Source: a virus (taxonomy: Duplodnaviria > Caudoviricetes). Taken from it: a stretch of DNA of 58,449 nt. Positions 4,770 to 55,048 of the stretch are shown here, in pieces (position 1 is the first letter of the stretch; each line of letters begins with the position of its first letter). The DNA is taken from the IMG/VR virus record IMGVR_UViG_3300017913_001414, positions 1 to 58,449 of that record, one strand, 5' to 3'. The notes beneath the pieces were generated by a model. That model was not told the origin of the DNA, made no database searches, and was given only the letters and a program-made list of their open reading frames with translations. Both the position numbers and the translations under genes were made by a program.

Positions 4770-6238
4770 TGCCCTCCGTGGGTACATCCCTGCAATATGA
4801 CCCCCTGTTTCCCGGGGGTAGCGAGACGTTCACCTCGTCCGGAACATTTAACTTGCCTCCGGGTATTCATGTTGTAACCGCTACTGTTGTCGGTGGTACT
4901 GGTAATTCGGGGACTTCTGGGAACGCAGGCACTGATGGCAACTCAGGCAACCCCGGCACAGCAGGCGCTGCCGGTAATGCTGGCGCGGCTGGAAATCCCG
5001 GTAACCCCGGAAACTCAGGCAATAATGGTTCTGGTGGTGCAGGGGGCGCAGGGGGGAATGGTAATCCCGGTAACCCGGGAAATCCGGGTACAGCGGGCGG
5101 AGGCGGCGGAGGCGGCGGAGGCGGCGGTGGTGGTGTTTTTAATCTACAACTCAAAGGTCAGCCTCCAGTACCCCCCGCCGTTCAGGGAAACCCCGGAAAC
5201 CCCGGCAATGCAGGTCCGGGTAACAGGGGTGGCAGCGCGGGTACGGGGGGGACCGGATATGGTAATCCAGGTGGTGCTTTTAACACTCCCGGGAACGCCG
5301 GAGGCGCTGGTAATGCTGGAAGCGCAGGAACCAATGGTAACAGCGGCAATTCTAATGCAGGCAGCGCAGGTAGCCCCGGAAATGCTGGCGCGAATGGTAA
5401 TGCTGGTAACGCTGGCTCAGGTGCTAACTCAGGCGGCGCGGGCGGAAGCGGCACAGCTGGCAATCCGGGGACGGCAGGTACTGCCGGAACTGACGGCTCT
5501 TCTGGCAACACGGGGGCAGCATCAAGCTTTGGAACTTACGTAACTGCAAATGGCGGGGCGGGTGGTGCTGCTGGCACCGGAGGGGCTGCGGGTACAGCTG
5601 GTACTGCCGGTACTGCGAATGACGGCAATCCCGGCAACCCCGGCAACAGCGGCACAGCTGGTAATGGGGGTAGTGCTGGTAATCCGGGCGCTCAGGGCGG
5701 CACTGGCAACCCCGGCACAGCTGGCAATCGTGGAAATGCTGGCAGTGCTGGGAGTGCTGGTGGGGGTGGTAACGGCGGCAGTGCAGGGAGTAATGCTAGC
5801 TCAGGCACAAACGGTAACACAGGAAGTCCCGATGGCAACCTTAACTCGTTTGGCAATGGTGGCAATAAGGGTAACAGAAACGCATCCGCAAATTATGGAA
5901 ATGCTGGCAACGGAGGTCGAGGTGGCAGACCTAATAATGGCGCCCCCGGAAATTCTGGAGGTTCCGGGTCATCCGGTAACACTGGCTCAACGGGCGCTAA
6001 TGGAACTGGGGCTACAAGCGGCAACCCCGGAAACGCAGGCGCAAATGGCAATGCAGGCTCCGCAGGTAGCGCCAACTCAGGCGGCGCTGGTAACTCAGGC
6101 ACACCCGGAAACGCTGGGGGTTCTGGTTCCGCAGGCAATACAACTAATCAGCAGCAAAGAATAAATGTTGCTCAACAAGCGGTTTCTGTTACAGTTGGAA
6201 GCGGTGGCTCAGTAGAGGTAAATTGGAGTAGACAATGA
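4769..6238 (+). CDS. Gly-rich G-X-X repeat fibre protein
   Basis: Long runs of GNP/GNA/GSA/GTA triplets and a poly-Gly tract; TFTSSGTF and VTVGSGG flanking motifs. Confidence 0.8.
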   Translation: MPSVGTSLQYDPLFPGGSETFTSSGTFNLPPGIHVVTATVVGGTGNSGTSGNAGTDGNSGNPGTAGAAGNAGAAGNPGNPGNSGNNGSGGAGGAGGNGNPGNPGNPGTAGGGGGGGGGGGGGVFNLQLKGQPPVPPAVQGNPGNPGNAGPGNRGGSAGTGGTGYGNPGGAFNTPGNAGGAGNAGSAGTNGNSGNSNAGSAGSPGNAGANGNAGNAGSGANSGGAGGSGTAGNPGTAGTAGTDGSSGNTGAASSFGTYVTANGGAGGAAGTGGAAGTAGTAGTANDGNPGNPGNSGTAGNGGSAGNPGAQGGTGNPGTAGNRGNAGSAGSAGGGGNGGSAGSNASSGTNGNTGSPDGNLNSFGNGGNKGNRNASANYGNAGNGGRGGRPNNGAPGNSGGSGSSGNTGSTGANGTGATSGNPGNAGANGNAGSAGSANSGGAGNSGTPGNAGGSGSAGNTTNQQQRINVAQQAVSVTVGSGGSVEVNWSRQ

Positions 6239-10020: not shown

Positions 10021-10977
10021 ATGCCTAGTAACTACACAGACAATAACAAGCTGGAGAAAATCGGCACCGGTGAACAGGCTGGTACTTGGGGTAACACCAC
10101 CAACACCAACTTCGATATTGTTGACGCCGCGCTTAGTGGCGTTGTTAGCTTCACCGTTTCCGGCGCTTCATCGAATCTAACATCGACAGACGGCACCCTC
10201 ACAAACGCGACTCGCAAGATGCTTGTGATTACCGCTGCCTCAGAAAACCACACGATTACCATCGACCCGAATACAGTTGAGAAGGTGTATTACGTTGTCA
10301 ATGACAGTGGTTATCAAATCACGTTTACTCAAGGGACTGGCGGGAACGTAGCCATACCAGATGGCAAGAACGCCTTCATATATGCAGACGGCGCAGGCTC
10401 TGGCGCAAAGGTCGCTGAGTTCAAACCAAACGACCCAACAAACCTTGACGCTAGCCTTGCCTCAACAACAACGGATGTGACCGGAAGTGATTTTGTCTTC
10501 TTTGCTGACGCTAGTGATAGCAATAATATTAAGAAAGCCACGATAACAAACGCGGCTCTTCAGGGTCCCACTGGCCCCACGGGACCTTCAGGTAGTGATG
10601 GCAACACAGGACCCACTGGACCCACTGGACCCACTGGACCTACAGGACCAACTGGGCCAACAGGACCCGCTGGTAACCCAAACACCACATTCGCTGCTAT
10701 TGGCTCCTACGCTATAGCATTTAACACCAGCAACAATGTTGTAACGGCTGTGGGAAGCAATGTTTCGGGTTCAAATCTAGCGTATTATGCAAATACCCAA
10801 ACTAACGAAGGTAATAGCACTAGCTTTGGGGGTTGGGTTACGGACAGAAACAATAACCTCTTAACCACTCTTAATGGGACATGGAGGAACATGGGTCCCC
10901 AGAGGAATAAAAGATTTACAGTTGACGGCAAGGAAGGCCCCTTTTACGCATTAAATCTTTTTGTCAGGGTTTCTTAA
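10021..10977 (+). CDS. tail fibre with collagen-like (GPT)n repeat
   Basis: [21 protein letters not shown]-terminus; GPT repeats at about 10564-10680. Confidence 0.8.
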
Positions 10978-11254: not shown

Positions 11255-11788
11255 ATGTTATGGAGGATGTTCCCGGGTGCCTTTCCGGAAGAAAAATGTG
11301 ATGAGATAATATCTCTAGGGCTTTCTCTTGGCACAGAGGACGCAACTGTATTCAATAATTCAGAAAGTGTGAGGCGCAGCCAAGTCGGTTGGATTGATAA
11401 TCGAGAGCTACTTGAAAACCTCCACCACTTAGTGACTATCGCAAACAGCGAATTGTTTGCTTTTGATGTTCACAAGGTTGCGCCGATTCAGTTCACTAAA
11501 TACTCATCAGATGACAGTGGTTGGTATGATTGGCACCATGATGTTGACTATGCCAGCACTAAGGCCTTTTCCAGAAAGCTATCGGTTACCGTGCAGTTAT
11601 CAGACCCGAGAGCCTACGCTGGAGGGGATTTGCAGTTTTCAGAGTGTGAAAATCCAGACTCAGAGGTGCTTAGGGCAAAGGGGACGGCAATAGTGTTCCC
11701 TTCATATTTGAGGCATAGAGTAACACCAGTAACTAGCGGAAGGCGCTATAGTTTGGTATCTTGGTTTGAGGGTCCAAGATGGAGATAA
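11255..11788 (+). CDS. 2OG-Fe(II) oxygenase (prolyl hydroxylase-like)
   Basis: WHHD, RKLS.TVQL, FPSY..HRVTPVT.G.RYSLV.W. Confidence 0.9.
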   Translation: MLWRMFPGAFPEEKCDEIISLGLSLGTEDATVFNNSESVRRSQVGWIDNRELLENLHHLVTIANSELFAFDVHKVAPIQFTKYSSDDSGWYDWHHDVDYASTKAFSRKLSVTVQLSDPRAYAGGDLQFSECENPDSEVLRAKGTAIVFPSYLRHRVTPVTSGRRYSLVSWFEGPRWR

Positions 11789-20590: not shown

Positions 20591-23500
20591 ATGGGCATTT
20601 ATAGCGCATATGGTAAAAGTGGTAGGCTCTACAATTTGGGTATTGCTGGTGATGCACCAACACCTCAAGAGCTAGAGAAGATACCGGGGATTCTGGATGA
20701 GTTGGATGCCCAGTATTTTCCCCAACAATCAGCGCCTTTAGTAGAAGAAGATGACGGCACGGCACTTGGCCGTGGTCTTAGTCGTGGTGTGGATATTCTA
20801 CAGGAGGGTTACGGCTCTGCTGTAGAAGGTATCGGTAGCATCATAGGCAACAGAACCATCGAGGACTACGGCAGGGAGGTTGTTGAGGCTCAGAAGAGAG
20901 ACCTTGAAGATGTGCAGCGTGCTGTAGCAACATTCGAGGAAGTCAAAGACCTCGGTACGTTTGCCACATATTTCGGAGAAACCTTAGGCGAGACATCGCC
21001 TCAACTTGCAAGCACTATTGCTGGCTCGATAGCTGGTCAAGCGCTGATTCCTATCCCGGGTGTTGGTGCTGCCATAGGTGGTCTGGCTGCAAATATACCA
21101 TTCTTCTATGGTATGAATCGCGAGGCCCAGAAGGACGCCATCCAAGAGGGGTACAGAACAGAAATGAATGAGGGGGCTGCGGCTCTCACAGCAATTCCTC
21201 AGGCAGCCTTAGACCTTGTTGTTGACCGTCTTCTGGTAGGTTTATCTCCCACCCCGAAACTACTACAAGGTGGTGGCATATTTACTCGTGTTAGTAAGGG
21301 CGTTGGTGCTGGTGCTGCCATCGAAGCGCCTACTGAGGTTGGGCAACAATTACTGGAGCGTTATCAGGCCGGGAAACCGATTGATGACGAGGAGGCAATC
21401 AACGAATACCGTGAAGCGGCCATCGCTGGCGGTCTTGTTGGTGGTACTGTTCGAGGTACAACAAGCGCTTTCGGTGCAGCCGACCCAGAACAAAAGCAAA
21501 AAGATGCAGAATTAAACGAGGACTTAGAAGAGCTAGCTGTTGAGGCTTCTTCTAAGGCTCAGTTCGCCCGTGAATCTATAACAGCGCCGGAGTTGCTGCC
21601 AGCACCTGCACAGGTTGAGGAGCAGGAGATTGTTAATCAGCAGAGACAAGAGGACGCGACAACGACAGAGGAGTTGCTTGAGGCTAAACAGGAGGAGGCA
21701 CAAGAGCAGCAGCAGGAGCAGATAGACCAGTTGGGGTTGGCGGCTGACGAGAAGGCTGCTCTCGCCATGCAGAATGAAAAAGAAGCTGCCACTAAGTATG
21801 AACCTGTAGAGCTAGACACTCTTCCTGAAGAAGAACAGTTCAACATTATAGGCGCTAGGGATGTTCGTGGTGACGCGCTGATTAGCGCCCCAGTAACCAT
21901 AGAAGAGATTGAGAATCTCGTTGGACCAGAGGCAGCGCAGCGCGAAAGAAACAAGCAGAAGCCCCTGTCTCAGGGTGTAGACAACTCAACACCCAAACAG
22001 AGCAGACCATTCCGTCAAGACCAGTATGAGGCGGCGGTTGAGGCTGTCAGAAAAGATGGCAAAGTAAGTATCCCACGTATCGCCCGGGCAGCACGTATCG
22101 AAAGTGATGACGTTGTAAATAATGGGATGGCTAGGGAGCTTCGTTCAGAGCTTATTAGGAAGGGCGTTATTAATGAGGTTGGCGAAAACAAGTATGAGGT
22201 TGCACCAGAGCGCACCGTAGAAGAGGACCCAACCGTCGCCCTAGAGGAGTTGGACTCTGCCTACCAGCAGGAACTAGACCTAGCCCGTGATGAGTACAGG
22301 GCCTTAGAGCAACGCAGACAGGACCTGATAGAACAGAACACACCAGAGGCAACGGCAGAGATAGCCGATGTGCAGCGTGACATGGACAGCTTGGAGGCTG
22401 CCATATCATCAGCAGAGCAGAGCCGACAGACTGTTTCGCAGAGTGTGCAGGACGCCAAAGAAACTCAAGTACCGAAGGAATCTGCCCTCCCAGCCAAAGC
22501 ATCTAACAACGCCAGCCGCGCCGTCAACTCAGAAGTTACCGATAACTATGGGCAGGTTAGGCAGAAGGTAGCCAACAGATTGCGTAAATATCTACGCAGT
22601 CTTGGCCTCACAGATGTAAACTTGGTGACTGCAAATGTTCTTGAGGCTGGTAGGCTGGAGGATGGCACTCTGGTTGAGGGCTTCGAGGAGGCTGGAGAGA
22701 ATGGCAGCCGCATCATTGCTCTGGCTATGGAGATATACGACCCGTCACTGAGCGACACAGAGCTTGAGGCCCGCCTTCGCAGTGTGATGAACCACGAGAT
22801 TATTCACTCGCTAAAAGCGCTTGGCTTGTTTACTGATGCCGAGTTTGCTGCTCTGGTTAAGGCCGCCGAAAACCGTAAGTATGTGGCAATAAAGGGTGGC
22901 AAGGCTGTAGAGCGCAGCTACACATACCTTGACCGTGCAAAGAGACTATATCCCGGCGCTGATTTAGAGTTGCAGCAAGAGGAAGCTGTGGCTGAATTGT
23001 TCCGTGATTGGGCTGACGGCAAAATTAAGCTTGCTGGTCGCCCGAACACACTGTTCCAGCGGATTAAGAAGTTCATCAAGTCTATCTTCAACGCACACAA
23101 TGAAGAGGGTATTGATGGTGCAGACCAGATATTCTCGAACATTGTTACCTCAACCAAAGAGGACCAGATTGGTAGCCGTGCCAGACAGCAAGGCTTAGAA
23201 CGTCAGCAGAGGCTGTACTCCCTGCGCCGCACAAAGTCAGGCCAATATGTTGGCGCACCACAGGGTATTGATTCGCCACAAAAACTGCGCTCACTGCGCC
23301 GTAAGCTTGAGGCTCTCGCTGCTGCTGGTGAAGAAGGCCGCTTCTGGTACGAGCGTAGCGGTCAAGCAATACTAGAAGCTGCTGGCGGCAACAAGAGAGA
23401 AGCAGAGAAGATTGTTCAAGCTATAGCAATCACATCACCATCCACTCCCGTGAAGGATAACTTTGCCTATGCAATTCAAGCTTACGCTGCTTGGCGTGCT

Positions 23501-26500
23501 GGCAAGGAGATTAAGACAGGGCGATTCCCTCAAGCTATGAGCAAGCGCCTTGAAGAACTGTTCAATGGAAAGGACTGGGAGGGTCGTAAGACCAACAACT
23601 TCTACATCAACTTGATGAGAGAGATTGACCCAGAACGTAGTCAAGGCGTTACCATTGATATCTGGATGATGCGTGCTTTGGGTTATGACAGTGAGAATCC
23701 AACAGACGCCCAGTATTCATTCGCTGAAGAAGAGACACTCCGTATTGCGAACAAGTACGGCTGGGAGCCTCAGCAGGCGCAGGCTGCTATTTGGGTAGCG
23801 GCTAAGGCGGCTATGGACGGTAAGCCAGTATCTCAAATGTCATATGACTACTCCACTGCCCTTGAAGAAAATCTTGGTCAGATTAGCTGGGAAAGTATAC
23901 CCGGTGCTACGGCTAATCATATGCCCGAAATGTTTGATGCGCCGATGGAGCAGCAGGCTGAGTATCATGTCGATATATCTAAGGCGTTTTTAGATGATGA
24001 GGGATTTGATATTGCTGCGCGGGAGCTTGGCCTTCTTACGCCCGGTGACTTTGAGGCGCCCGGATACTTCGAAGGCAAGGTAAGCCCCGGAACTCAGACC
24101 GAAGCTGTCATGGCCCGTCAGTACAAAGGCCCAACCTACGGTCAGGTTGACGCCGCCACTGAGGATTTGATTACTGCATATGCTGCTGTTCGTGGAATCC
24201 TAATGAAGCAGGATGGTGTCGGATGGCATCGCCCGTGGTTCGGTGATAAAGTGCGCCGCAAAGACTCTAATGGTGTTGAGATTCGATTGGGCAGGCCTTT
24301 GACTCAAGATGAGACAGCAAGGCTGGCGCAAATCATGAGTGACATAACGGGCCATAGCGAGTACAATCCTATTGGGTCTCGGGATGGTGCGCGTATAATT
24401 AACTTTGATTATGTCGGCACAGAGAACGCAGACTTTCAGTCTCAGGTTGAGCAAGCCCTTGAAGCTATGGAGTTTGACGGAGACCCAGAAGTAGATGCTG
24501 TACGATTTGCAGCGCAAACCGGATATGCCGGTAATGATTGGAGTGTAAATAAAAATGGCGAAGGTTACATTCAGACAGGCCTCGATGGACGACCCTCTCT
24601 TCAGCGGAGAGTTCAAGATATCGTCGAAACCATCCAGTCCAGAATCGATGACATCGATGCAGACTACTCAGAAAAATATGGATGGACAAGAAACAACGAA
24701 GTCAACGCAAACTTCAGGGCCACAGAAGAAGCGCCAGTAGAACCCCAACCTGCTGAGGAAAGTGACAGGGAACTTTCTGATATTGATGAGGGTCTCACAA
24801 GAGACCAGATTGATGACTTGCAGGATGCTCGAAGTGATATCGAGACAGCAGAGCAAGCCCAGCGTAAGTACAGCGTAAACCCGACAAAGCCATTCGCACT
24901 CAATCGTGCGCCAATCAAACGCGATACATATGAGTATGGTCAGATACGCGAAGGTAATCGCTTGGTGCCAGTTGTCTTGCCAGCAGGTAGGCACTTCGAT
25001 GACCAAGATGGGAGCAGCTTCGGATTGCACCACATACAAGAACGCAACCACGACACGGAGTTGCAAGAGGTGTCCAAGTATCCGCGTGTTGAGGAAGCTA
25101 TATACGACTTGCTCGCACGTTGGCGCAGCCAACAACACACAGACGGCTCTGATGTAGTTGGATTCCCACAGGGAAGAAACTTCTACCGCCTAGAGTGGGT
25201 CAACAATACTGGTCGCTCAAAAGTTCCATTGAACTTAGTTCTCCAGAGGGGGCAGACCAAAGACGGCAACGCCATCTATTTTGTTAAGACGTTCTTCCCA
25301 GACATGAATGCCGCGCAACCTCAACAGAGGCAGGCTGGTATGAGGCGGCGCAGCGCCCTGCCCATGACATCTGTGCGCTCATACAGCGTTATCATGCCAG
25401 AGAGACAGAGCAATATTGCGTACAGTCGTGCGGGCAAGCTTATACAAAAGGTAATCGGCAAGCCATTGAAGTTATTTGTTGGTGAGGATAAGGCCCAGAA
25501 ACTGTCTGAGCAGTTCATCACAAACTTCCAAGACAATATGTATCCTGTCGCAAAGCTTATTGATGACCTGAAAGCTGCTGGCGCTAACATCACAGACGCC
25601 CTAGATACATATCTGCAAGAGGAACTGTATCATGGACGGGTCGGCGCTAGGGTCGAAGAGAATCAGAAGAAGTTTTACACGCCGCTTGCCGAGTTGGTTA
25701 GGGATATAAGTATCCCAGCAGCTGTAATAGAAAGAATGTCTTCGTTTAGTGGTTTTGTTAAAGGCTCTTACGAGAACAACAATAGTGCCAAGCTCACTCT
25801 TGCCGAAGCATTTTTGTACGCCCGCCATGCAAAAGAACGCAACGCATATATCAGAGGAATCAACCCGGGTGAGGACTCAGGTTCTGGTATGACTGATGTT
25901 GAGGCTGACAAGATACTTGCGTTTATCTCTGGTCTTGATTCAGAGACTCAGTCCCAGCTTGCTGCTATAGCTGATGCTGCTGATGCCACGATTCAGAATA
26001 CAAATGATATACGTGTGGCCTCTGGCCTAACGCCAGACTTTAATGATGGAAGTCCAGTCACCCTTGAGGATGGCACAGAAGCTGCGCCACCTAGCTTCTC
26101 TTCGTATGTTCCGTTGCGCGGTATCTTAGACCCAGAGAGTGAAGCCACAGAGGAGGCCAGAACAAGCTACGGCAGGGGTGGCGACAGGTTCGGTGTTCGT
26201 GGTCGTGAGGACCGCAGGGCTTTGGGTCGCGGTGAGTACGCAGAGAGCATACTCGCCAACATCATGACGCAAAATCAGAACGCTATTATACGTTCAGAGA
26301 AGAACAATGTGGGCAAGTCTTTCTTGGAGTTGATTAGGCAGAACCCAGAACTGATGGCTCCAGTTGCCCGTGTGCTTGAGAGCCGACCCACCACCCGTGG
26401 TTTGGTAAACGGTACTGTTCGCACAGTCCCAGCCATGATGCCACAAGATGACATACTTGTAGTAAAGGATGGCGGTCAGGAAGTGTATATAGAAATCCTT

Positions 26501-28258
26501 GACCCTCGCATTGCCAAAGCAATGAAGGGTGCAAGCGGTATGTCTACGGAGTCTATGGGTGTTGTTACTCGTGCTATGGGCAAGCTGAACAGATACCTGT
26601 CCAACATCAACACCTCATTCAACCCTGAGTTCTTGATTACTAACTTGGTCCGTGACTTGCAAACTGCCGGTGTTAACTTGGGTCAGTTTGACCAAGACAA
26701 GTTGTCTCGTGAGGTTCTTGGTGGGGTCACTGGTGCGCTGAAGGGAATCAAGCGTTCAATTATCAACGGAGACAATAGCTCTGAGTGGTCGCAAATATTT
26801 GAAGACTTTGTAGCCAATGGTGGCAAGACATCTGCTAACCCCATGACAACGCTGCAAGACCAGCTAAACTCAATCAACGATACTTTGGGCGACATCTCCG
26901 ATGCTGGTGTACGCAAGCAGTGGGGTCGTGTGAAGCGCAGTTTCGTTGGCGATATCTTTAGAGCGCTTGAGAATTACAACACCGTGGTTGAGAACGGTAT
27001 CCGTGTCGCTACATACAAGGCGCTGCTTGACCGTGGGTACACAAAAGAACGTGCGGCGCAGGCAGCTAAAAATGTTACAGTGAACTTTACAAAGGGCGGT
27101 GAGTACAAGACATTCATGAACTCTTGGTCTCTGTTCTACAATGCATCACTGCAAGGTTCGATGGCACTCCTCACGGCTGCTACACGCTCCAAGCGTGTGC
27201 AGAAACTGTGGGCTGGTGTTGTGGTGGCTGGACTTCTGCAAGACCAGTTGAACGCTGCCCTCTCAGAGGAGGACGAGGACGGAGAACTTCAGTACGATAA
27301 GATTCCTGACTATGTTCTTGAGCATAACTTCATACTGCCCGACCCATTCGGTATTACTGAGCGCTCTTACATTAAGATTCCACTGCCATATGGATTAAAT
27401 ATGGCACACAACATTGGTCGAACATTGAGCCGTTCTGGTCGTGGAGAGTACCAGCCGGGCGAAGCAACAAGCACTATTGTTGCGACAATTCTTGAGGCAG
27501 TTAACCCGATGGGCGGACTTGACCCAGATGCAACTGGGTACGGCTTCCTTAACTTTGTTGCCCCGACAATCGCTGACCCGTTTATTGACATCGCAGAGAA
27601 CGAGGACTTTGCTAACAAGCCAGTATATAAAGAGGCATCACAGTTTGGTGTGCCTGCCCCAGATAGTCAGCTTTACTGGTCTACAACCTCGCCATCAGCT
27701 AAGTGGATTACTGATAATCTCAACAGCTTAACAGGTGGTACACCCTCCATGTCTGGTTACATCGACATATCACCAGACATATTGGACTTCTGGTTTGAGT
27801 TTGCAACGGGTGGTGTCGGTAGGTTCGTTCAGCGCACTGCTGAGTTTGGTGCGTCAACCGCACCCAAGATTATTACTGGTGACTTTGAGGACGAGATGGT
27901 TCGGGCGATACCTCTCGCTCGTAAGGTTGTCGGCAGTGTCTCAGACAGAGAAGATACAGAGAACTTTATTAACAACAGAAACGTCATCCTAACGGCACGG
28001 AGAGAGTTGCTTGAGGCAACTCGTGCGGGAGATGTAGCCAGAATAGAGGCCGTAAGAAACAGCTACGCAGATGAACTGGCTATCGCTCCTCGTATGAATG
28101 CTCTCAACAACAGACGTAATCAGTTGCTGCGCCGCCGCAATCAGATTAAAAAAGCGCCGAATATTCCTGAGGCTCAAAAAGAAAAGCTTTTAGAGCGAGT
28201 TAATGAGCAGATACAGGAAGTTGTGCTAAGGGCAAACCAGCTTACTCGTCAGCGTTAA
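20591..28258 (+). CDS. giant polyvalent internal virion protein (zincin HEXXH, glycosylase-like, PBECR-like and LPD38-like domains)
   Basis: 2555 aa; NHEIIH..E motif; WY..AITSP..KT.NF..VTIDIWM..QAAIW; FGLHHI; C-terminal YIKIPLPYG..N.DF...P. Confidence 0.75.
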   Translation: MGIYSAYGKSGRLYNLGIAGDAPTPQELEKIPGILDELDAQYFPQQSAPLVEEDDGTALGRGLSRGVDILQEGYGSAVEGIGSIIGNRTIEDYGREVVEAQKRDLEDVQRAVATFEEVKDLGTFATYFGETLGETSPQLASTIAGSIAGQALIPIPGVGAAIGGLAANIPFFYGMNREAQKDAIQEGYRTEMNEGAAALTAIPQAALDLVVDRLLVGLSPTPKLLQGGGIFTRVSKGVGAGAAIEAPTEVGQQLLERYQAGKPIDDEEAINEYREAAIAGGLVGGTVRGTTSAFGAADPEQKQKDAELNEDLEELAVEASSKAQFARESITAPELLPAPAQVEEQEIVNQQRQEDATTTEELLEAKQEEAQEQQQEQIDQLGLAADEKAALAMQNEKEAATKYEPVELDTLPEEEQFNIIGARDVRGDALISAPVTIEEIENLVGPEAAQRERNKQKPLSQGVDNSTPKQSRPFRQDQYEAAVEAVRKDGKVSIPRIARAARIESDDVVNNGMARELRSELIRKGVINEVGENKYEVAPERTVEEDPTVALEELDSAYQQELDLARDEYRALEQRRQDLIEQNTPEATAEIADVQRDMDSLEAAISSAEQSRQTVSQSVQDAKETQVPKESALPAKASNNASRAVNSEVTDNYGQVRQKVANRLRKYLRSLGLTDVNLVTANVLEAGRLEDGTLVEGFEEAGENGSRIIALAMEIYDPSLSDTELEARLRSVMNHEIIHSLKALGLFTDAEFAALVKAAENRKYVAIKGGKAVERSYTYLDRAKRLYPGADLELQQEEAVAELFRDWADGKIKLAGRPNTLFQRIKKFIKSIFNAHNEEGIDGADQIFSNIVTSTKEDQIGSRARQQGLERQQRLYSLRRTKSGQYVGAPQGIDSPQKLRSLRRKLEALAAAGEEGRFWYERSGQAILEAAGGNKREAEKIVQAIAITSPSTPVKDNFAYAIQAYAAWRAGKEIKTGRFPQAMSKRLEELFNGKDWEGRKTNNFYINLMREIDPERSQGVTIDIWMMRALGYDSENPTDAQYSFAEEETLRIANKYGWEPQQAQAAIWVAAKAAMDGKPVSQMSYDYSTALEENLGQISWESIPGATANHMPEMFDAPMEQQAEYHVDISKAFLDDEGFDIAARELGLLTPGDFEAPGYFEGKVSPGTQTEAVMARQYKGPTYGQVDAATEDLITAYAAVRGILMKQDGVGWHRPWFGDKVRRKDSNGVEIRLGRPLTQDETARLAQIMSDITGHSEYNPIGSRDGARIINFDYVGTENADFQSQVEQALEAMEFDGDPEVDAVRFAAQTGYAGNDWSVNKNGEGYIQTGLDGRPSLQRRVQDIVETIQSRIDDIDADYSEKYGWTRNNEVNANFRATEEAPVEPQPAEESDRELSDIDEGLTRDQIDDLQDARSDIETAEQAQRKYSVNPTKPFALNRAPIKRDTYEYGQIREGNRLVPVVLPAGRHFDDQDGSSFGLHHIQERNHDTELQEVSKYPRVEEAIYDLLARWRSQQHTDGSDVVGFPQGRNFYRLEWVNNTGRSKVPLNLVLQRGQTKDGNAIYFVKTFFPDMNAAQPQQRQAGMRRRSALPMTSVRSYSVIMPERQSNIAYSRAGKLIQKVIGKPLKLFVGEDKAQKLSEQFITNFQDNMYPVAKLIDDLKAAGANITDALDTYLQEELYHGRVGARVEENQKKFYTPLAELVRDISIPAAVIERMSSFSGFVKGSYENNNSAKLTLAEAFLYARHAKERNAYIRGINPGEDSGSGMTDVEADKILAFISGLDSETQSQLAAIADAADATIQNTNDIRVASGLTPDFNDGSPVTLEDGTEAAPPSFSSYVPLRGILDPESEATEEARTSYGRGGDRFGVRGREDRRALGRGEYAESILANIMTQNQNAIIRSEKNNVGKSFLELIRQNPELMAPVARVLESRPTTRGLVNGTVRTVPAMMPQDDILVVKDGGQEVYIEILDPRIAKAMKGASGMSTESMGVVTRAMGKLNRYLSNINTSFNPEFLITNLVRDLQTAGVNLGQFDQDKLSREVLGGVTGALKGIKRSIINGDNSSEWSQIFEDFVANGGKTSANPMTTLQDQLNSINDTLGDISDAGVRKQWGRVKRSFVGDIFRALENYNTVVENGIRVATYKALLDRGYTKERAAQAAKNVTVNFTKGGEYKTFMNSWSLFYNASLQGSMALLTAATRSKRVQKLWAGVVVAGLLQDQLNAALSEEDEDGELQYDKIPDYVLEHNFILPDPFGITERSYIKIPLPYGLNMAHNIGRTLSRSGRGEYQPGEATSTIVATILEAVNPMGGLDPDATGYGFLNFVAPTIADPFIDIAENEDFANKPVYKEASQFGVPAPDSQLYWSTTSPSAKWITDNLNSLTGGTPSMSGYIDISPDILDFWFEFATGGVGRFVQRTAEFGASTAPKIITGDFEDEMVRAIPLARKVVGSVSDREDTENFINNRNVILTARRELLEATRAGDVARIEAVRNSYADELAIAPRMNALNNRRNQLLRRRNQIKKAPNIPEAQKEKLLERVNEQIQEVVLRANQLTRQR

Positions 28259-40693: not shown

Positions 40694-40701
40694 GCAACCT
40701 C

Positions 40702-41721
40702 CTACAGGACTAGTGATTTACCCTTAGTCAAAATCCATTGCTTGACCGCCTCAGCGCGTTTCAACTCAGGGTCGCGGTTCAGCGCATCCTTGATGGTGAA
40801 GGCCGCAAATTCCTGATGCGGTAAGCGGTTGAGATATTTGACCACATTGGCAATGTTCGACTTGTTGGCCTTGTGAGCCAGCGCAGCGCAGATGGCATAG
40901 CCGATGGACGGGTCTTCTGAGACCTCAGCCGTGTCGGGGTTTGCAATCAGCTTGTCGATATCTGGGCAGGTCTCATAGACACGCAGGAAGCCGACAAAAT
41001 CAGCCGCCGCACCCTGTCCAACCTGACCAGCCAGTGCCTCATTCTGACAGGTGCTGTCCAGCTTCCATTGCAGGACGCTAGACACACGCTCCCATGAGCG
41101 AGGTGAGGGACACGCATTTGCATCGCGGTCAAACTTGTGCAGGAACTCAGGGCGAAAGCGCAGGAAGGCGCAGACGCGAGGGTCTATCTGCTTGCTGTTG
41201 AAATAACCGACAGTGTCCTCAAGGTCAGCCTCGACCTCTAGGAACATCAGGCGGTCACGCAGGTGTGTGGGCATCTGGTTCGTGCCAGCCTTGTCGCTGG
41301 TGCGGTTACCAGCCGCCACAATCACCCAGCCATCTGGCAGGTGGTGTTGGCCTACACGCCGTTCATTGACGATTTGTGCCGCGATATTCTGATTGGCAAC
41401 AGGGGCTTGGGGCAATTCGTCTAGGAACAAAATACCTTCGCCATCTGCTGGCATCCAGTCAGGACGGGCGCGATACATGGTCTCGCCATCTTTGTTGGGT
41501 AACACCCAGCCAGCCAATTCGCCAGCGTCATACTGAGCCAGCGACACGATGCGGCAGTCAACGCCACGCGCATCTGCAACATCTTGGATGATGGTTGTCT
41601 TGCCCAAGCCTGCGCCGCCCACAAGGTACGGCACGACATACTGGGCATCCCGCCCGTCAGTGATTGACAGGTTGCTGTCGATTGAAGCCTCGACAATGGC
41701 TTTTGCTTGTGAAAGTTTCAT
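40702..41721 (-). CDS. MoxR-like AAA+ ATPase
   Basis: Walker A GGAGLGKT, Walker B LFLDE, AAGNR..D.AG, L.DR, PSPRSWE. Confidence 0.92.
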   Translation of the reverse strand: MKLSQAKAIVEASIDSNLSITDGRDAQYVVPYLVGGAGLGKTTIIQDVADARGVDCRIVSLAQYDAGELAGWVLPNKDGETMYRARPDWMPADGEGILFLDELPQAPVANQNIAAQIVNERRVGQHHLPDGWVIVAAGNRTSDKAGTNQMPTHLRDRLMFLEVEADLEDTVGYFNSKQIDPRVCAFLRFRPEFLHKFDRDANACPSPRSWERVSSVLQWKLDSTCQNEALAGQVGQGAAADFVGFLRVYETCPDIDKLIANPDTAEVSEDPSIGYAICAALAHKANKSNIANVVKYLNRLPHQEFAAFTIKDALNRDPELKRAEAVKQWILTKGKSLVL

Positions 41722-41745
41722 GTAACTTTACCTCCGTTCATGAAT

Positions 41746-41799
41746 TGCTGTTTCGACCTAGTCGGTCTCATCAGTGCAGGTCACTACCTACAGACAGCA
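41746..41799 (-). ncRNA. type III hammerhead ribozyme (HH1)
   Basis: RNA: UGCUGU-C^-UGUAGGU AGUG ACCUGCA-CUGAUGA-GACC GACUA GGUC-GAA-ACAGCA; full core and three stems; predicted cut between 41793 and 41792. Confidence 0.93.
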
Positions 41800-41800
41800 G

Positions 41801-41824
41801 GCAGGGCGACCTAAGCCGCCCCGC
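41801..41824 (-). other. GC-rich hairpin immediately 5' of HH1
   Basis: GCGGGGCGGC-UUAG-GUCGCCCUGC; no U-tract. Confidence 0.7.
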
Positions 41825-41833
41825 CCGTTCTCA

Positions 41834-42238
41834 CTAAGAGACCGCTACCGCGCTCTCCAGTTGAGCCTCAATCTTCTGCACATCTTCAGCGAGTTTTTCG
41901 GTTGCCTCGACAACAGCGTCCAGTGCAGACATGTCGGTGCGGGGCAAACCCAAGCGCTTGATTACACCAGCAGGGAAGTGCCGTGCTGGGTGCAGTGCAA
42001 CCCGATGGGCTTTCGTGATGACGCTAGCGAGTGCCGTTGAAAGCACGTTGTAGCTTATCTCGAAGCCGCCCAAGCTATCGGCGTAGATAACGCCGAAGTC
42101 ATCTTCGGGGTCTAGCCAGTCGCCAGCCACAAAGTGAGCAACCTCATAGTGCCGAATTTGCACATCAAAGTTTGCATCTTTGTTCTCGATGACAGCGAGA
42201 TAGAATTTGTTGGCGAGTGGGATTGTGATTTGAGCCAT
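41834..42238 (-). CDS. hypothetical early protein flanked by two hammerheads
   Basis: Start corrected to MAQITIP after a GGAGGU RBS. Confidence 0.75.
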   Translation of the reverse strand: MAQITIPLANKFYLAVIENKDANFDVQIRHYEVAHFVAGDWLDPEDDFGVIYADSLGGFEISYNVLSTALASVITKAHRVALHPARHFPAGVIKRLGLPRTDMSALDAVVEATEKLAEDVQKIEAQLESAVAVS

Positions 42239-42267
42239 GTGAACCTCCGAATGTTTCATGGAACTTT

Positions 42268-42322
42268 TTGCTGTTTCGGCATATTAGCCTCATCAGTGCG
42301 GGTCACTACCCGCAGACAGCAA
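42268..42322 (-). ncRNA. type III hammerhead ribozyme (HH2)
   Basis: RNA: UUGCUGU-C^-UGCGGGU AGUG ACCCGCA-CUGAUGA-GGC UAAUAU GCC-GAA-ACAGCAA; predicted cut between 42315 and 42314. Confidence 0.93.
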
Positions 42323-42352
42323 GCGGGGCAGCCAGAGGGATAGCCGCCCCGC
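42323..42352 (-). other. GC-rich hairpin immediately 5' of HH2
   Basis: GCGGGGCGGCUA-loop-UGGCUGCCCCGC. Confidence 0.7.
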
Positions 42353-42358
42353 CCGTTG

Positions 42359-43024
42359 TTACTCAGCCGCGAAAGCCTCGACAACGTCTTCGACAGTGTC
42401 GGCTTCCTCAGCAGCAGCCTGAGCCGCAGCGCGAATGTCATGCTTGCGATGCACCGCATCGGTCAGCTTGGCAACGAAAGCAGCCAGTGCTTCCAACTCA
42501 TCATTGCGGTCATCAAAGCCGTTGAGCAGCGCAGCAGCCTCGCTGATATTGCCAGTCTTGGTCTCGCGACCAACAACCTTTTCGACAAGCAAATCTTCCT
42601 GAGATTTCTCATCATCACCGCAAACCAGCTTGCGAAGCTTGGCCTCGCTGGTCACCTCAGCCTGCTCGAATGCTTCAAGCACAGCGTCAGCAGTCACGTT
42701 AGTGCCTTCGCCAGTTGAGAAGCCGAAGTAGCGCACAGCCGCTTGACTGTTCTCGACATACTTTTTGATGGTTGCAGGCTTGAGGCCGCAATCAATCTCA
42801 AGCAAATCGCGAATGTCTTTGGCGATGGACACGGGCAGCTTGCCCTTAGCTGTCCATTCGTTCTTGCACATTTCAGCAATCAGGTCTGCATAACACGCAA
42901 CCTTCAGCACGTTGGCTTGGTCAGTGTTGGCTGCATTGTCAGCACGAAGCGTTGCAATGCCACCCTCACGATTTGCGATGTTGTCCAGAATGTCCTGCTC
43001 GAATGAAAGAGTGAATTTAGTCAT
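42359..43024 (-). CDS. acidic helical hypothetical protein, first early gene
   Basis: 221 aa, A/E/D-rich; GGAGGU RBS; lies between HH3 and HH2. Confidence 0.8.
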   Translation of the reverse strand: MTKFTLSFEQDILDNIANREGGIATLRADNAANTDQANVLKVACYADLIAEMCKNEWTAKGKLPVSIAKDIRDLLEIDCGLKPATIKKYVENSQAAVRYFGFSTGEGTNVTADAVLEAFEQAEVTSEAKLRKLVCGDDEKSQEDLLVEKVVGRETKTGNISEAAALLNGFDDRNDELEALAAFVAKLTDAVHRKHDIRAAAQAAAEEADTVEDVVEAFAAE

Positions 43025-43046
43025 GGTGTAACCTCCGATTGGTAAA

Positions 43047-43099
43047 CTCTGTTTCGGCCTTTAGGCCTCATCAGGGGCAGCACACACTGCCCGACAGAG
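43047..43099 (-). ncRNA. type III hammerhead ribozyme (HH3)
   Basis: RNA: CUCUGU-C^-GGGCAG UGUGUG CUGCCC-CUGAUGA-GGCC UAAA GGCC-GAA-ACAGAG; predicted cut between 43093 and 43092. Confidence 0.94.
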
Positions 43100-43261
43100 C
43101 CTTGCCGCCGTTGGACTGTAATCAAACGTGTACCTCAGGACGGGTGGAAGATTAGGTTGGCTAGCATCACCTGAGGGTCTCTCACCCCAGCAGCTAGCGA
43201 GAGCCTGTCTCGCCTTGTTGTTGCGCTTCGTTTTTGGGCAGCGTCCCCATCGGATGACCAT

Positions 43262-43300
43262 TATGTACCGCACCTAGATTTTACAGTCAACACTTTTTTT
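43262..43300 (-). promoter_or_regulatory. sigma70-like early promoter with UP-like A tract
   Basis: Minus strand AAAAAAAGTG-TTGACT-17 nt-TACATA. Confidence 0.6.
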
Positions 43301-43435
43301 ACACCTGTTACAATGCAGGGTGAGTAAGGGTTTGCGGCGATAGTAAATTGTTCCATGTAACTTTTTTTGATACACTGGTGACAGAATTGACGGGGTAAAA
43401 TCCCGCACCAAGCGAAGCGCATGGAAGGCGATACA

Positions 43436-43894
43436 ATGGCTAAGGGTAATAAACCAAATCACCTGTCACTGGTGGCAGATAACCTAACAGGGAAGCAAGA
43501 AGCCTTTGCTCAGAAAGTAGCAGCAGGGGCAGTGCTGTCAGATGCCTACAGGGAAGCCTATGAGGCAGAGAATATGAAGGATAGCAGCATATGGACTGAG
43601 GCCTGCAAGCTAGCGCAGCACCCAAAGGTCTCCCATAGGATTAAAGCTATTCAGGCTGATATTGAGGCAGACCGCCGCACGAGAGAGGCTAGGCGAGAGG
43701 AATACGTTTTGAAAATGCTTCAGGCGGAGGCAGAAGGGGCTGAGACAGACGGGGCAAGGGTTCGTGCGCTGGAATTACTGGGCAAGACCATTGGCATGTT
43801 CACCGACAGGGTTGAGACCGATGACCAAACAGAGCGCAGCGCGGCAGACATTGAGGCTGAGATTCGCAGGACGCTAGCGAGGCTGGGGGATTGA
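43436..43894 (+). CDS. terS: terminase small subunit
   Basis: LT.KQE.FA, AY..AY, A.KL..HPKV..RI, ALELLGK..GMFTDRVE. Confidence 0.85.
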   Translation: MAKGNKPNHLSLVADNLTGKQEAFAQKVAAGAVLSDAYREAYEAENMKDSSIWTEACKLAQHPKVSHRIKAIQADIEADRRTREARREEYVLKMLQAEAEGAETDGARVRALELLGKTIGMFTDRVETDDQTERSAADIEAEIRRTLARLGD

Positions 43895-43996
43895 CGATTC
43901 GGCGGCAGGCTGACCCCCACCGCCCCCCTACCCCCCGTATAATAGATAGAGTACGCGCACGCATACTACATGATGTTCCACTCACCCGATGAGATA

Positions 43997-53539: not shown

Positions 53540-54445
53540 ATGGCAATTTCACGCGCACAACTATTGAAAGAACTGCTGCCGGGTCTTAATGCCCTGTTCG
53601 GCCTTGAGTACGAAAAGTACGAAAACGAACATGCAGAAATCTATGAAACCGAAAACTCAGAGCGTAGCTTCGAAGAAGAAGTGAAACTGTCTGGCTTCGG
53701 TGCCGCTCCGGTCAAGCCGGAAGGTTCTGCTATCGCATTTGATTCAGCACAAGAATCTTTCACAGCCCGTTACAATCACGAAACGATTGGCATGGGTTTC
53801 TCCGTCACCGAAGAAGCAATGGAAGACAACCTGTACGATGCACTTTCTGCTCGTTACACGAAAGCACTGGCTCGCGCTATGGCTTACACGAAACAGGTTA
53901 AAGCTGCCAACTTGCTGAACAATGGTTTCACCACGTTCAACTCCGGCGACTCTGTCACACTCTTCAGCACAGCACACCCGACTGTCGCTGGTGGCAATAA
54001 CTCTAACCGTCCGTCAACGGACTCTGACCTGAACGAGACCTCACTCGAGCAGGCTGTGATTGATATCGCTGCCTTCACTGATGAGCGTGGTCTTCTGGTT
54101 GCGGCTCGCCCGCGCAAACTGATTGTGCCACCGGCACTGATGTTTGTTGCTACTCGCCTGCTGCAAACTGAACTGCGTACAGGTACCGCTGACAATGACA
54201 TCAACGCCCTTCGCACCAACGGTTCGATTCCGGAAGGTTTCCGCGTCAATCACTACCTGACTGACACCGATGCCTTCTTCATCACCACCGATGTGCCGAA
54301 TGGCATGAAGCACTTTGTCCGTACTCCGATGACCACATCGATGGACGGTGACTTCGACACAGGTAATGTCCGCTATAAAGCCCGTGAGCGTTATAGCTTT
54401 GGCGTATCTGACCCGCTTGGTATTTACGGTTCGCCGGGTGCCTAA
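53540..54445 (+). CDS. major capsid protein
   Basis: MAISRAQLLKELLPGLNALFGLEY...DFDTGNVRYKARERYSFG.SD; strong codon bias; followed by a terminator. Confidence 0.9.
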   Translation: MAISRAQLLKELLPGLNALFGLEYEKYENEHAEIYETENSERSFEEEVKLSGFGAAPVKPEGSAIAFDSAQESFTARYNHETIGMGFSVTEEAMEDNLYDALSARYTKALARAMAYTKQVKAANLLNNGFTTFNSGDSVTLFSTAHPTVAGGNNSNRPSTDSDLNETSLEQAVIDIAAFTDERGLLVAARPRKLIVPPALMFVATRLLQTELRTGTADNDINALRTNGSIPEGFRVNHYLTDTDAFFITTDVPNGMKHFVRTPMTTSMDGDFDTGNVRYKARERYSFGVSDPLGIYGSPGA

Positions 54446-54500: not shown

Positions 54501-54583
54501 ATTTGTCAACAAGTGGTACAATGACCTGTTCCTTGACAGTCGCATGAGGCGATTGACAACAACCCAAGACAAGGAGATTGACA

Positions 54584-55048
54584 ATGGGTCAAACTACTTT
54601 TTCAGGTCCGGTTCGTTCTGAGCGCGGATTTACAGCAGTTGGTTCAAACGCTGTAGTTAATATCACAGCAGAAACAACTCTTACATATGCAGACCATGTT
54701 GGCCGCATCATTGAAATCAATGACGCAGACGGCGCGGTTACGCTTCCCTCAATTACTTCAGACACTATTGGTGCAAAGTACACGTTCTTTGTTGGTACAG
54801 ACGCAACTGACCTTGACATCAAAACTGATGGCACGGACAAGTTCTTAGGTTCTGTTAGTGTTATTGGAGCAACCACCGCTGGCTTTGTGCCGGGTGCAAA
54901 CAATGATGTTATCTCAATGAACGGCGGCACCACTGGTGGTGACAAAGGCTCGTATGTAGAGGTCACCGCATTGGCTACCGCTGAATATTTAGTTCAGGGT
55001 GTTCTGGTTGGCGCGGGTACCGTAGCTACACCTTTTGCTGATAGCTAA
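54584..55048 (+). CDS. virion structural protein
   Basis: MGQTTFSGPVRS start; ATPFADS end; AAGGAG RBS. Confidence 0.75.
   Translation: MGQTTFSGPVRSERGFTAVGSNAVVNITAETTLTYADHVGRIIEINDADGAVTLPSITSDTIGAKYTFFVGTDATDLDIKTDGTDKFLGSVSVIGATTAGFVPGANNDVISMNGGTTGGDKGSYVEVTALATAEYLVQGVLVGAGTVATPFADS

Follow-up and report, generated by a model that had tools for sequence, protein, structure and literature searches.

Hairpin-coupled hammerhead ribozymes as probable punctuation marks in a polycistronic phage transcript

Clustered hammerhead ribozymes that flank single genes in phage transcripts are known to cleave both in vitro and in E. coli, and the processing of polycistronic RNA has been proposed as their role (Perreault et al. 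2011, PMC3088659). Such clusters occur in prophages and phages, with triple arrangements described in Agrobacterium tumefaciens, Azorhizobium caulinodans and Clostridium scindens, and the idea that they give rise to circular or spliced products was already raised in 2011 (PMC3088659). A review that can likewise be cited for polycistronic processing by phage hammerheads still calls their purpose unresolved (PMC6765202). Here we analyze an array of this kind in the IMG/VR virus record IMGVR_UViG_3300017913_001414 (58,449 bases, estimated completeness 99%), taken at its full length as the window of this study. Three same-strand hammerheads, HH3, HH2 and HH1 in the order of transcription, bracket two genes of this record, p221 (221 amino acids, between HH3 and HH2) and p134 (134 amino acids, between HH2 and HH1), and HH1 is followed by a gene for a MoxR-type ATPase.

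All three elements matched the type III hammerhead model RF00008 over its full length (cmscan, model positions 1-54 of 54). On the minus strand, HH3 lies at 43100-43046, within the 5′ leader of p221, the first gene (46.7 bits, E = 1.3e-8), HH2 at 42322-42268 (46.9 bits, E = 1.1e-8) and HH1 at 41800-41745 (39.4 bits, E = 1.5e-6). Each occupies an intergenic 5′ untranslated region of the coding strand, with GGAGG and then an ATG downstream of it (43036-43032 and 43024 after HH3, 42248-42244 and 42238 after HH2, 41735-41731 and 41721 after HH1). The core, CUGAUGAG ... CGAAAC, and the GUC site are intact in every copy, and the conserved CUGANGA ... GAAA, the A15.1-U16.1 pair and a cleavage nucleotide other than G were found in all three. 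In the cmscan alignments stems I and II are closed by loops and stem III is open, with a length of 9 base pairs (bp) in HH3, 7 in HH2 and 6 in HH1. The combined motif CTGTC..CTGATGAG..CGAAACAG occurs 3 times in the window, compared to 0 times in 100 dinucleotide-preserving shuffles of it; together with E-values of 1e-8 to 1e-6, this control makes a chance origin of the matches very unlikely. Cleavage after GUC is predicted between 43093 and 43092 (C and G) in HH3, 42315 and 42314 (C and U) in HH2, and 41793 and 41792 (C and U) in HH1, which would yield fragments of 778 nucleotides (nt) from HH3 to HH2 and 522 nt from HH2 to HH1.

HH2 and HH1 are each coupled to a strong hairpin on the same strand. 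Hairpin 2 (core 42352-42323, extendable to 42355) begins 3-6 nt past the TAA of p221 (42361-42359) and adjoins stem III of HH2; hairpin 1 (41801..41827, core 41824-41801) begins 6-9 nt past the TAG of p134 (41836-41834) and either touches stem III of HH1 or overlaps its outer pairs. Folding energies of the 40 nt that precede stem III are -28.5 kcal/mol for HH2 and -27.1 kcal/mol for HH1. HH3 has neither a gene upstream of it nor a hairpin, and its 40 upstream nucleotides fold with just -5.7 kcal/mol. Both hairpins run into the stem III strand (U)UGCUGUC, not into a T/U tract; no T-tract follows either one and neither was reported by a terminator scan. From 43100 to 41700, a consensus scan of the minus strand gave no promoter-like site; the promoter and terminator calls are pattern scans only. 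An earlier note, made from the letters of this DNA, had described the two hairpins (41801-41824 and 42323-42352) as following upstream stop codons and lacking a U-tract, had given the fragments as 522 and 778 nt long, and had seen that HH1 and HH2 share their stem III. All of its coordinates and sequence features were borne out: the lengths match the predicted cleavage sites, and the shared stem III extends over 6 contiguous pairs for HH1/HH2 and 4 pairs only for HH3/HH2.

We consider it fairly probable, on the sequence at hand, that the hammerheads act as punctuation, dividing a polycistronic transcript into linear mRNAs whose ends are structured. An early/replication operon would be transcribed as one long minus-strand RNA from one promoter, and three constitutive type III hammerheads would, as their sequences predict, cut it co-transcriptionally about 25-30 nt before the start codons. 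The products would be a discarded leader, a 778-nt p221 mRNA, a 522-nt p134 mRNA and a long mRNA of which the ATPase gene would be the first gene. Downstream products would start with a 5′-OH within the closed body of stems I and II, and upstream products would end in a strong GC hairpin followed by 6-7 nt and a 2′,3′-cyclic phosphate. Lying between the stop codon and stem III, the hairpin would block 3′-to-5′ exonucleases on the upstream message; a further role in stacking on the short stem III and insulating it is probable. The outcome would be a set of linear mRNAs, each stable and translated separately.

The pairing of hairpin and ribozyme recurs well beyond this locus. Scanned with a sequence pattern, viral contigs gave at least 118 stretches; 117 loci and the window gave 115 instances, which fell into 77 non-redundant clusters, and the figures that follow hold for the pattern matches listed. 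RF00008 confirmed type III hammerheads at E<=0.001 in 74 of 79 records checked (35/40 and 39/39). With a fold of -10 kcal/mol or better in the 40 upstream nucleotides counted as a hairpin, 55 of the 77 clusters have one, vs. 166/942 windows after other stop codons and 42/472 windows placed at random (Mann-Whitney test, p about 1e-21 and 1e-27, respectively). The distance from the last pair of the hairpin to the first pair of stem III is 0 nt in 41/55 and at most 2 nt in 49/55. Since 49 distinct hairpin sequences occur, it is structure and position that are conserved, not sequence. The upstream stop codon mostly lies 22-39 nt before CUGUC and the first ATG mostly 19-30 nt beyond the ribozyme. 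The hairpin is also associated with the end of an upstream gene (odds ratio 7.3, p=0.003): by crude calls of open reading frames (ORFs) of at least 50 amino acids ending within 80 nt, 47 clusters have both hairpin and ORF, 4 a hairpin alone, 16 an ORF alone and 10 neither. A hairpin tends to occur where a gene ends upstream, and HH3, with no gene before it, is without one; this fits the both-end-protected monocistronic mRNAs that the earlier note had inferred. Judging from these matches, the cassette of hairpin, ribozyme and ribosome-binding site is a widespread phage module, and the repeated cassette recognized in that note is real, its hairpin and hammerhead recurring in the 55 clusters.

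One group in the census shares a conserved palindromic hairpin. A near-invariant palindromic core (GTGTCTTCAAAGACAC) directly precedes the type III hammerheads of many phage contigs, mostly of about 45-63 kb (L055, L059, L066, L078, L079, L108, L109, L110 and L173-L176), and its conservation beyond the needs of a stem may reflect the binding of a protein or a recent common ancestor. In another set of pattern hits (L096, L113, L119, L120, L134, and L131 at about 5319-5368), the segment from CUGAUGAG to CGAAAC is too short for a stem II and complements the stem I loop (e.g. GGUA with UACC). These may be pseudoknot-type variants of the hammerhead; the example at 5319 of L131 gave no report with the Rfam type III model.

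The cassettes of HH1 and HH2 are, by their alignment, paralogous and recent duplicates. The HH1 copy occupies 41711..41838 and its partner 42249-42366, both on the minus strand (alignment A1). Direct repeats between them (D2, 41 nt, 88% identity; D6, 25 nt, 88%; D8, 19 nt, 89%; spacing 522-538 nt) span the hairpin, the ribozyme and the segment after it, with about 88% identity over roughly 125 nt. The stem III shared by HH1 and HH2 is explained by this duplication. The HH2 copy even retains a relic of the ATPase gene start: 42249-42267 matches 41711-41729 (89%), including the ATG at 41721, so that an in-frame ATG stands at 42259, and a new GGAGG and the p134 start lie beyond it. The simplest history that this suggests is an insertion of p134 between p221 and the ATPase gene together with a duplication of the cassette, in which case the stem III match would have been inherited, not selected. 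Cassettes of this kind may be joints at which genes are exchanged. Between HH1 and HH2, the changes in stem I preserve pairing and the stem II sequences are wholly different, which argues that both ribozymes were kept functional. A strain with an overall identity of 97.4% shows 23 differences in 41700-43300. HH1, HH2 and both hairpins are free of them; the only ribozyme affected is HH3, with one difference in its stem II loop, and another difference turns a TAG into TAA. About 2.5 differences would be expected in these elements, a result consistent with constraint and not significant.

Several observations weigh against the proposed punctuation. All three hammerheads score just under the RF00008 gathering score of 48.5 bits, which is why a default Rfam scan misses them. 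The RNAfold minimum free energy (MFE) structures of the uncleaved HH2 and HH1 contexts (125-131 nt) lack stem III, the hairpin region pairing with part of the stem III 5′ strand, and HH3 is the only one of the three to fold as a hammerhead in plain RNAfold. Nearest-neighbour folding disregards the tertiary contacts of hammerheads; taken at face value, these models could mean slow or conditional cleavage of HH2 and HH1. We infer 3′ protection from the position of the hairpin, and the association with upstream ORFs is equally expected if the hairpin shields the ribozyme from upstream translation. The hairpin is, moreover, missing in 16/63 listed hammerheads with an upstream ORF, and the 77 clusters were chosen by one sequence pattern and include some related phages, so they are not independent. 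The 47 relatives that share the ATPase (45-77% identity) are all without a hammerhead, making the device dispensable for this type of operon. Finally, the RNA-library contigs of the region (42711-43023 and 42547-42776) all lie inside p221 and are uninformative about transcript ends; this check covered four runs as contigs, two of them probably DNA, and contigs cannot reveal ends or rare circles.

The folds of HH2 and HH1 also show what could be a translation-coupled switch, in which the 5′ flank of the hairpin sequesters the stem III strand. We rejected it as a general feature, since native flanks gave 2.06 paired nucleotides and swapped flanks 1.90 (p=0.25, 49 cases).

The hairpin might act chiefly as a folding aid, forming a coaxial stack with the open, short stem III and separating the hammerhead from the upstream coding sequence and from terminating ribosomes, with any 3′ protection incidental. 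We judge this unlikely as the main role, while giving it more weight than the other alternatives. The exact contact of hairpin and stem III in 41 of the 55 listed clusters speaks for it, and the association with upstream ORFs fits insulation as well as protection. Stem III measures 4-7 bp in each of the 49 cases with a hairpin, and the four stems of 8-9 bp all belong to cases without one, as does the 9-bp stem of HH3; the overall difference in length is, however, not significant (5.4 vs. 5.8 bp, p=0.19), leaving unsupported the idea that hairpin-less ribozymes compensate by a longer stem III. Hairpins 1 and 2 (-27 to -28.5 kcal/mol) are also far stronger than stacking requires, and stacking and protection are mutually compatible. 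GC-rich hairpins directly past stop codons might, on the other hand, be terminators or attenuators, with a separate promoter for each downstream gene and hammerheads that trim read-through or are relics; such hairpins are fairly common after genes in the controls (the 166/942 above). The lack of a T-tract and of any terminator-like call, the lack of a promoter-like minus-strand site from 43100 to 41700 in the pattern scans, and the ribozyme that fills the 45-60 nt from the hairpin to the ribosome-binding site, with a core that is intact and the same in both strains, make this extremely unlikely. The earlier note had named terminators with separate promoters as the outcome that would refute it, and neither scan supports them.

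The same note had proposed that the 522-nt fragment, which holds p134, could rebuild a hammerhead across its own ends and be released as a circular mRNA. The 3′ UGCUGUC with its cyclic phosphate would pair with ACAGCA near the 5′ end, and reversal of the ribozyme reaction or a host RtcB would close a translatable circle; hammerhead cleavage is reversible, and RtcB joins 5′-OH to 2′,3′-cyclic phosphate ends. The HH2 3′ strand and the HH1 5′ strand can indeed form six contiguous chimeric stem III pairs, the highest number among 19 adjacent pairs of hammerheads, and the chimeric ribozyme would hold a full core and the GUC site. In the partition function of the 522-nt fragment, 5/6 chimeric pairs have a probability of 0.79-0.89. 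This part of the proposal stood in silico; the comparison across the 19 pairs lent it no support. These pairs come from 13 phage records with 32 hammerheads, after 15/44 listed rows had been dropped (11 partial, low-scoring or with a partial partner, 4 from two duplicate records), and two of the 'adjacent' pairs skip a weak intervening hit. Chimeric stem III had a mean length of 3.6 bp in adjacent pairs vs. 3.8 bp in unrelated ones, compared to 5.5 bp for the ribozymes' own stems, and a chimeric fit of at least 5 bp was seen in 5/19 adjacent vs. 249/940 unrelated pairs. In three related records with a 343-nt bracketed fragment, the own stems have 6-9 bp and the chimeric stem 3 bp, and the ends of the HH3-HH2 fragment fit over 4 bp only. 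The match at p134 is explained by descent, through the duplication described above. A rebuilt hammerhead would also cut the circle again, a strong 3′ hairpin would be useless on circular RNA, the phage record encodes no RtcB (PF01139), and no back-joined contig was found among the contigs of the four runs, which cannot exclude one. For clustered phage hammerheads, circular or spliced products have been sought and not detected, with 'data not shown' (PMC3088659). The circle is thus geometrically sound for the 522-nt fragment in these models, its case is a geometrical one, and nothing indicates selection for it; we hold it to be very unlikely. A composite reading, in which the cassettes are widespread portable punctuation marks that double as recombination joints where new genes are inserted and a fraction of the p134 message is circularised and translatable, strikes us as improbable too. 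If it were true, the p134 circle would be a natural bacterial-virus counterpart of retrozyme circles, its message having inherited self-complementary ribozyme ends from the duplication of a cassette on both sides of the inserted p134.

The HH2-p134-HH1 unit was found in no diverged relative in the viral or metagenome contigs searched. Among 48 records that share the ATPase, hammerheads occur in one (E<=0.1), a near-identical fragment; the other ATPase relatives have tightly overlapping small ORFs and no intergenic cassettes. A search of viral contigs for p134 gave one locus, from the near-identical record, and 367 pattern stretches in metagenome contigs contained no relative. Using a DNA pattern specific for HH1 and HH2, we recovered from viral contigs only the near-identical record and, from metagenome contigs, two contigs from an unrelated phage whose hammerheads are of type II. 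With blastn in distant mode, 40700-43900 matched nothing in the phage collection. The unrelated phage carries two type II-like motifs, with stem III closed by UUCG and stem II open, about 800 nt apart (L190 at about 1680-1740 and 2470-2540; L191 at about 10770-10830 and 11560-11630), and the second shares the stem I loop UAGUGA with HH1 and HH2. In L131, from a different phage lineage, a type III hammerhead (5957-6033, plus strand; 34.9 bits) carries an insertion of 27 nt in stem II and lies 24 nt upstream of a gene of the p221 family (ATG at 6057; 33% identical). A ribozyme before the first gene therefore recurs with the p221 family, although the closer relatives that share the ATPase are without it.

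The hammerhead cassettes stand at the head of a minus-strand operon that extends from 43024 to about 36487, in the order p221, p134, the MoxR-type ATPase, a DUF2201 metallopeptidase/VWA-like protein and further genes. As a lead only, a candidate operon promoter was read by eye at 43260..43290 on the minus strand, with TTGACT at 43290-43285 followed by TACATA 17 nt on or CATAAT (43265-43260) 19 nt on; the consensus scan gave no report of it. The gene p221 (42359..43024, from the ORF list) matched no PHROG or Pfam family, and its matches in the protein atlas are clusters of phage hypothetical proteins only; in related phage loci, homologues of it (30-42% identity) precede the ATPase gene. The orphan p134 (41834..42238, likewise from the ORF list) matched no PHROG or Pfam family and nothing in the protein atlas. 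Among 5.8 billion proteins, it has its own cluster and one 87% variant only, and no homologue was found in related phage loci except those from the near-identical record. The MoxR/AAA-type ATPase gene (40702..41721; phrog_1297, E = 4e-80) is followed after 8 nt by the DUF2201 gene (40693-39536; phrog_1314, E = 7e-102; Pfam DUF2201_N and DUF2201), p221, p134 and these two genes all being on the minus strand.

Elsewhere the record encodes phage structural proteins, a primase/helicase, a Sak-like annealing protein, an exonuclease and an endolysin, and we regard its source as a lytic-type marine phage. Related stretches occur in many marine, estuary and sediment runs, with at least half of the sampled words in 18 rows; the 20 rows holding the stretch were drawn from 11 studies. 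Divergent from the hammerhead operon, a lone plus-strand gene (43421-43894) lies between two minus-strand blocks. It weakly matches the terminase small subunit (phrog_51, E = 3.5e-15; Pfam 24 bits, below cut-off) and, judging by its position, may encode a DNA-binding regulator rather than a packaging protein. The window's only Rfam match at gathering score is a Mu-gpT-DE RNA on the plus strand (54531-54586; 49 bits, E = 2.6e-8), which ends in ATG and lies just downstream of a 301-amino-acid ORF (53540-54445) in the head-gene block. A 2555-amino-acid ORF at 20591-28258 (plus strand) matches giant phage proteins over its C-terminal 900 residues (phrog_14770, E = 7e-142) and a virion structural protein family at its N-terminus.

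The window and the 77 clusters reveal a common grammar, consisting of a stop codon, a hairpin touching stem III, the ribozyme, about 25 nt and a start codon. This grammar turns the vague idea that such ribozymes process mRNA into a testable design, in which the ribozyme would give one message its 3′ end and the following message its 5′ end, while the hairpin would guard that 3′ end. If confirmed, it would amount to a protein-independent means for a phage to control both the stoichiometry and the stability of gene products from one promoter, and to a natural, ready-made part for synthetic operons. A circular p134 mRNA would be more striking than punctuation.

The same logic, namely a cut between cistrons, a defined 5′ end and a 3′ hairpin, underlies RiboJ-type insulators and the use of terminator or repetitive extragenic palindromic (REP) hairpins as barriers to 3′ exonucleases. 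In RiboJ a hairpin was added downstream of the ribozyme; the phage cassette is natural and has its hairpin upstream. With the RF00008 family in general, the three hammerheads share the canonical core, the GUC site, closed stems I and II and an open stem III; they differ in scoring 39.4-46.9 bits, under 48.5, and in lying in the mRNA of a DNA phage, not in a viroid, satellite or retrozyme. Like the circles of viroids, satellites and retrozymes (PMC4918200, PMC7229834), the p134 fragment derives from two hammerheads of the same polarity, and its HH2/HH1 ends could rebuild a ribozyme. Unlike them, it codes for a protein, has its own ribosome-binding site and belongs to the operon of a double-stranded DNA phage, and the compatibility of its ends is not conserved in other phage arrays.

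The closest likeness is to the arrays of Perreault et al. (2011, PMC3088659), where several same-strand hammerheads also bracket single genes in a phage transcript, the bracketed genes vary in identity and a cutting of the transcript into single-gene mRNAs was proposed. A coupling of hairpin and ribozyme goes unmentioned in the main text of that paper, in which the words 'terminator' and 'stem-loop' occur 0 times. Among the literature titles and abstracts covered (a partial set, without supplements), there was no natural hairpin-plus-hammerhead cassette and no circular phage mRNA made by hammerheads. What was known already are the type III hammerheads and the triple array that brackets phage genes. 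In contrast to the arrays of PMC3088659, all three ribozymes here are of type III, they stand in the record of a lytic-type marine phage and two of them are fused to a strong hairpin. Beyond what we found in print within this partial coverage, two points are added here, namely that a hairpin is regularly fused to stem III on its 5′ side where genes end, and the evidence for the duplication of a cassette upon the insertion of a gene.

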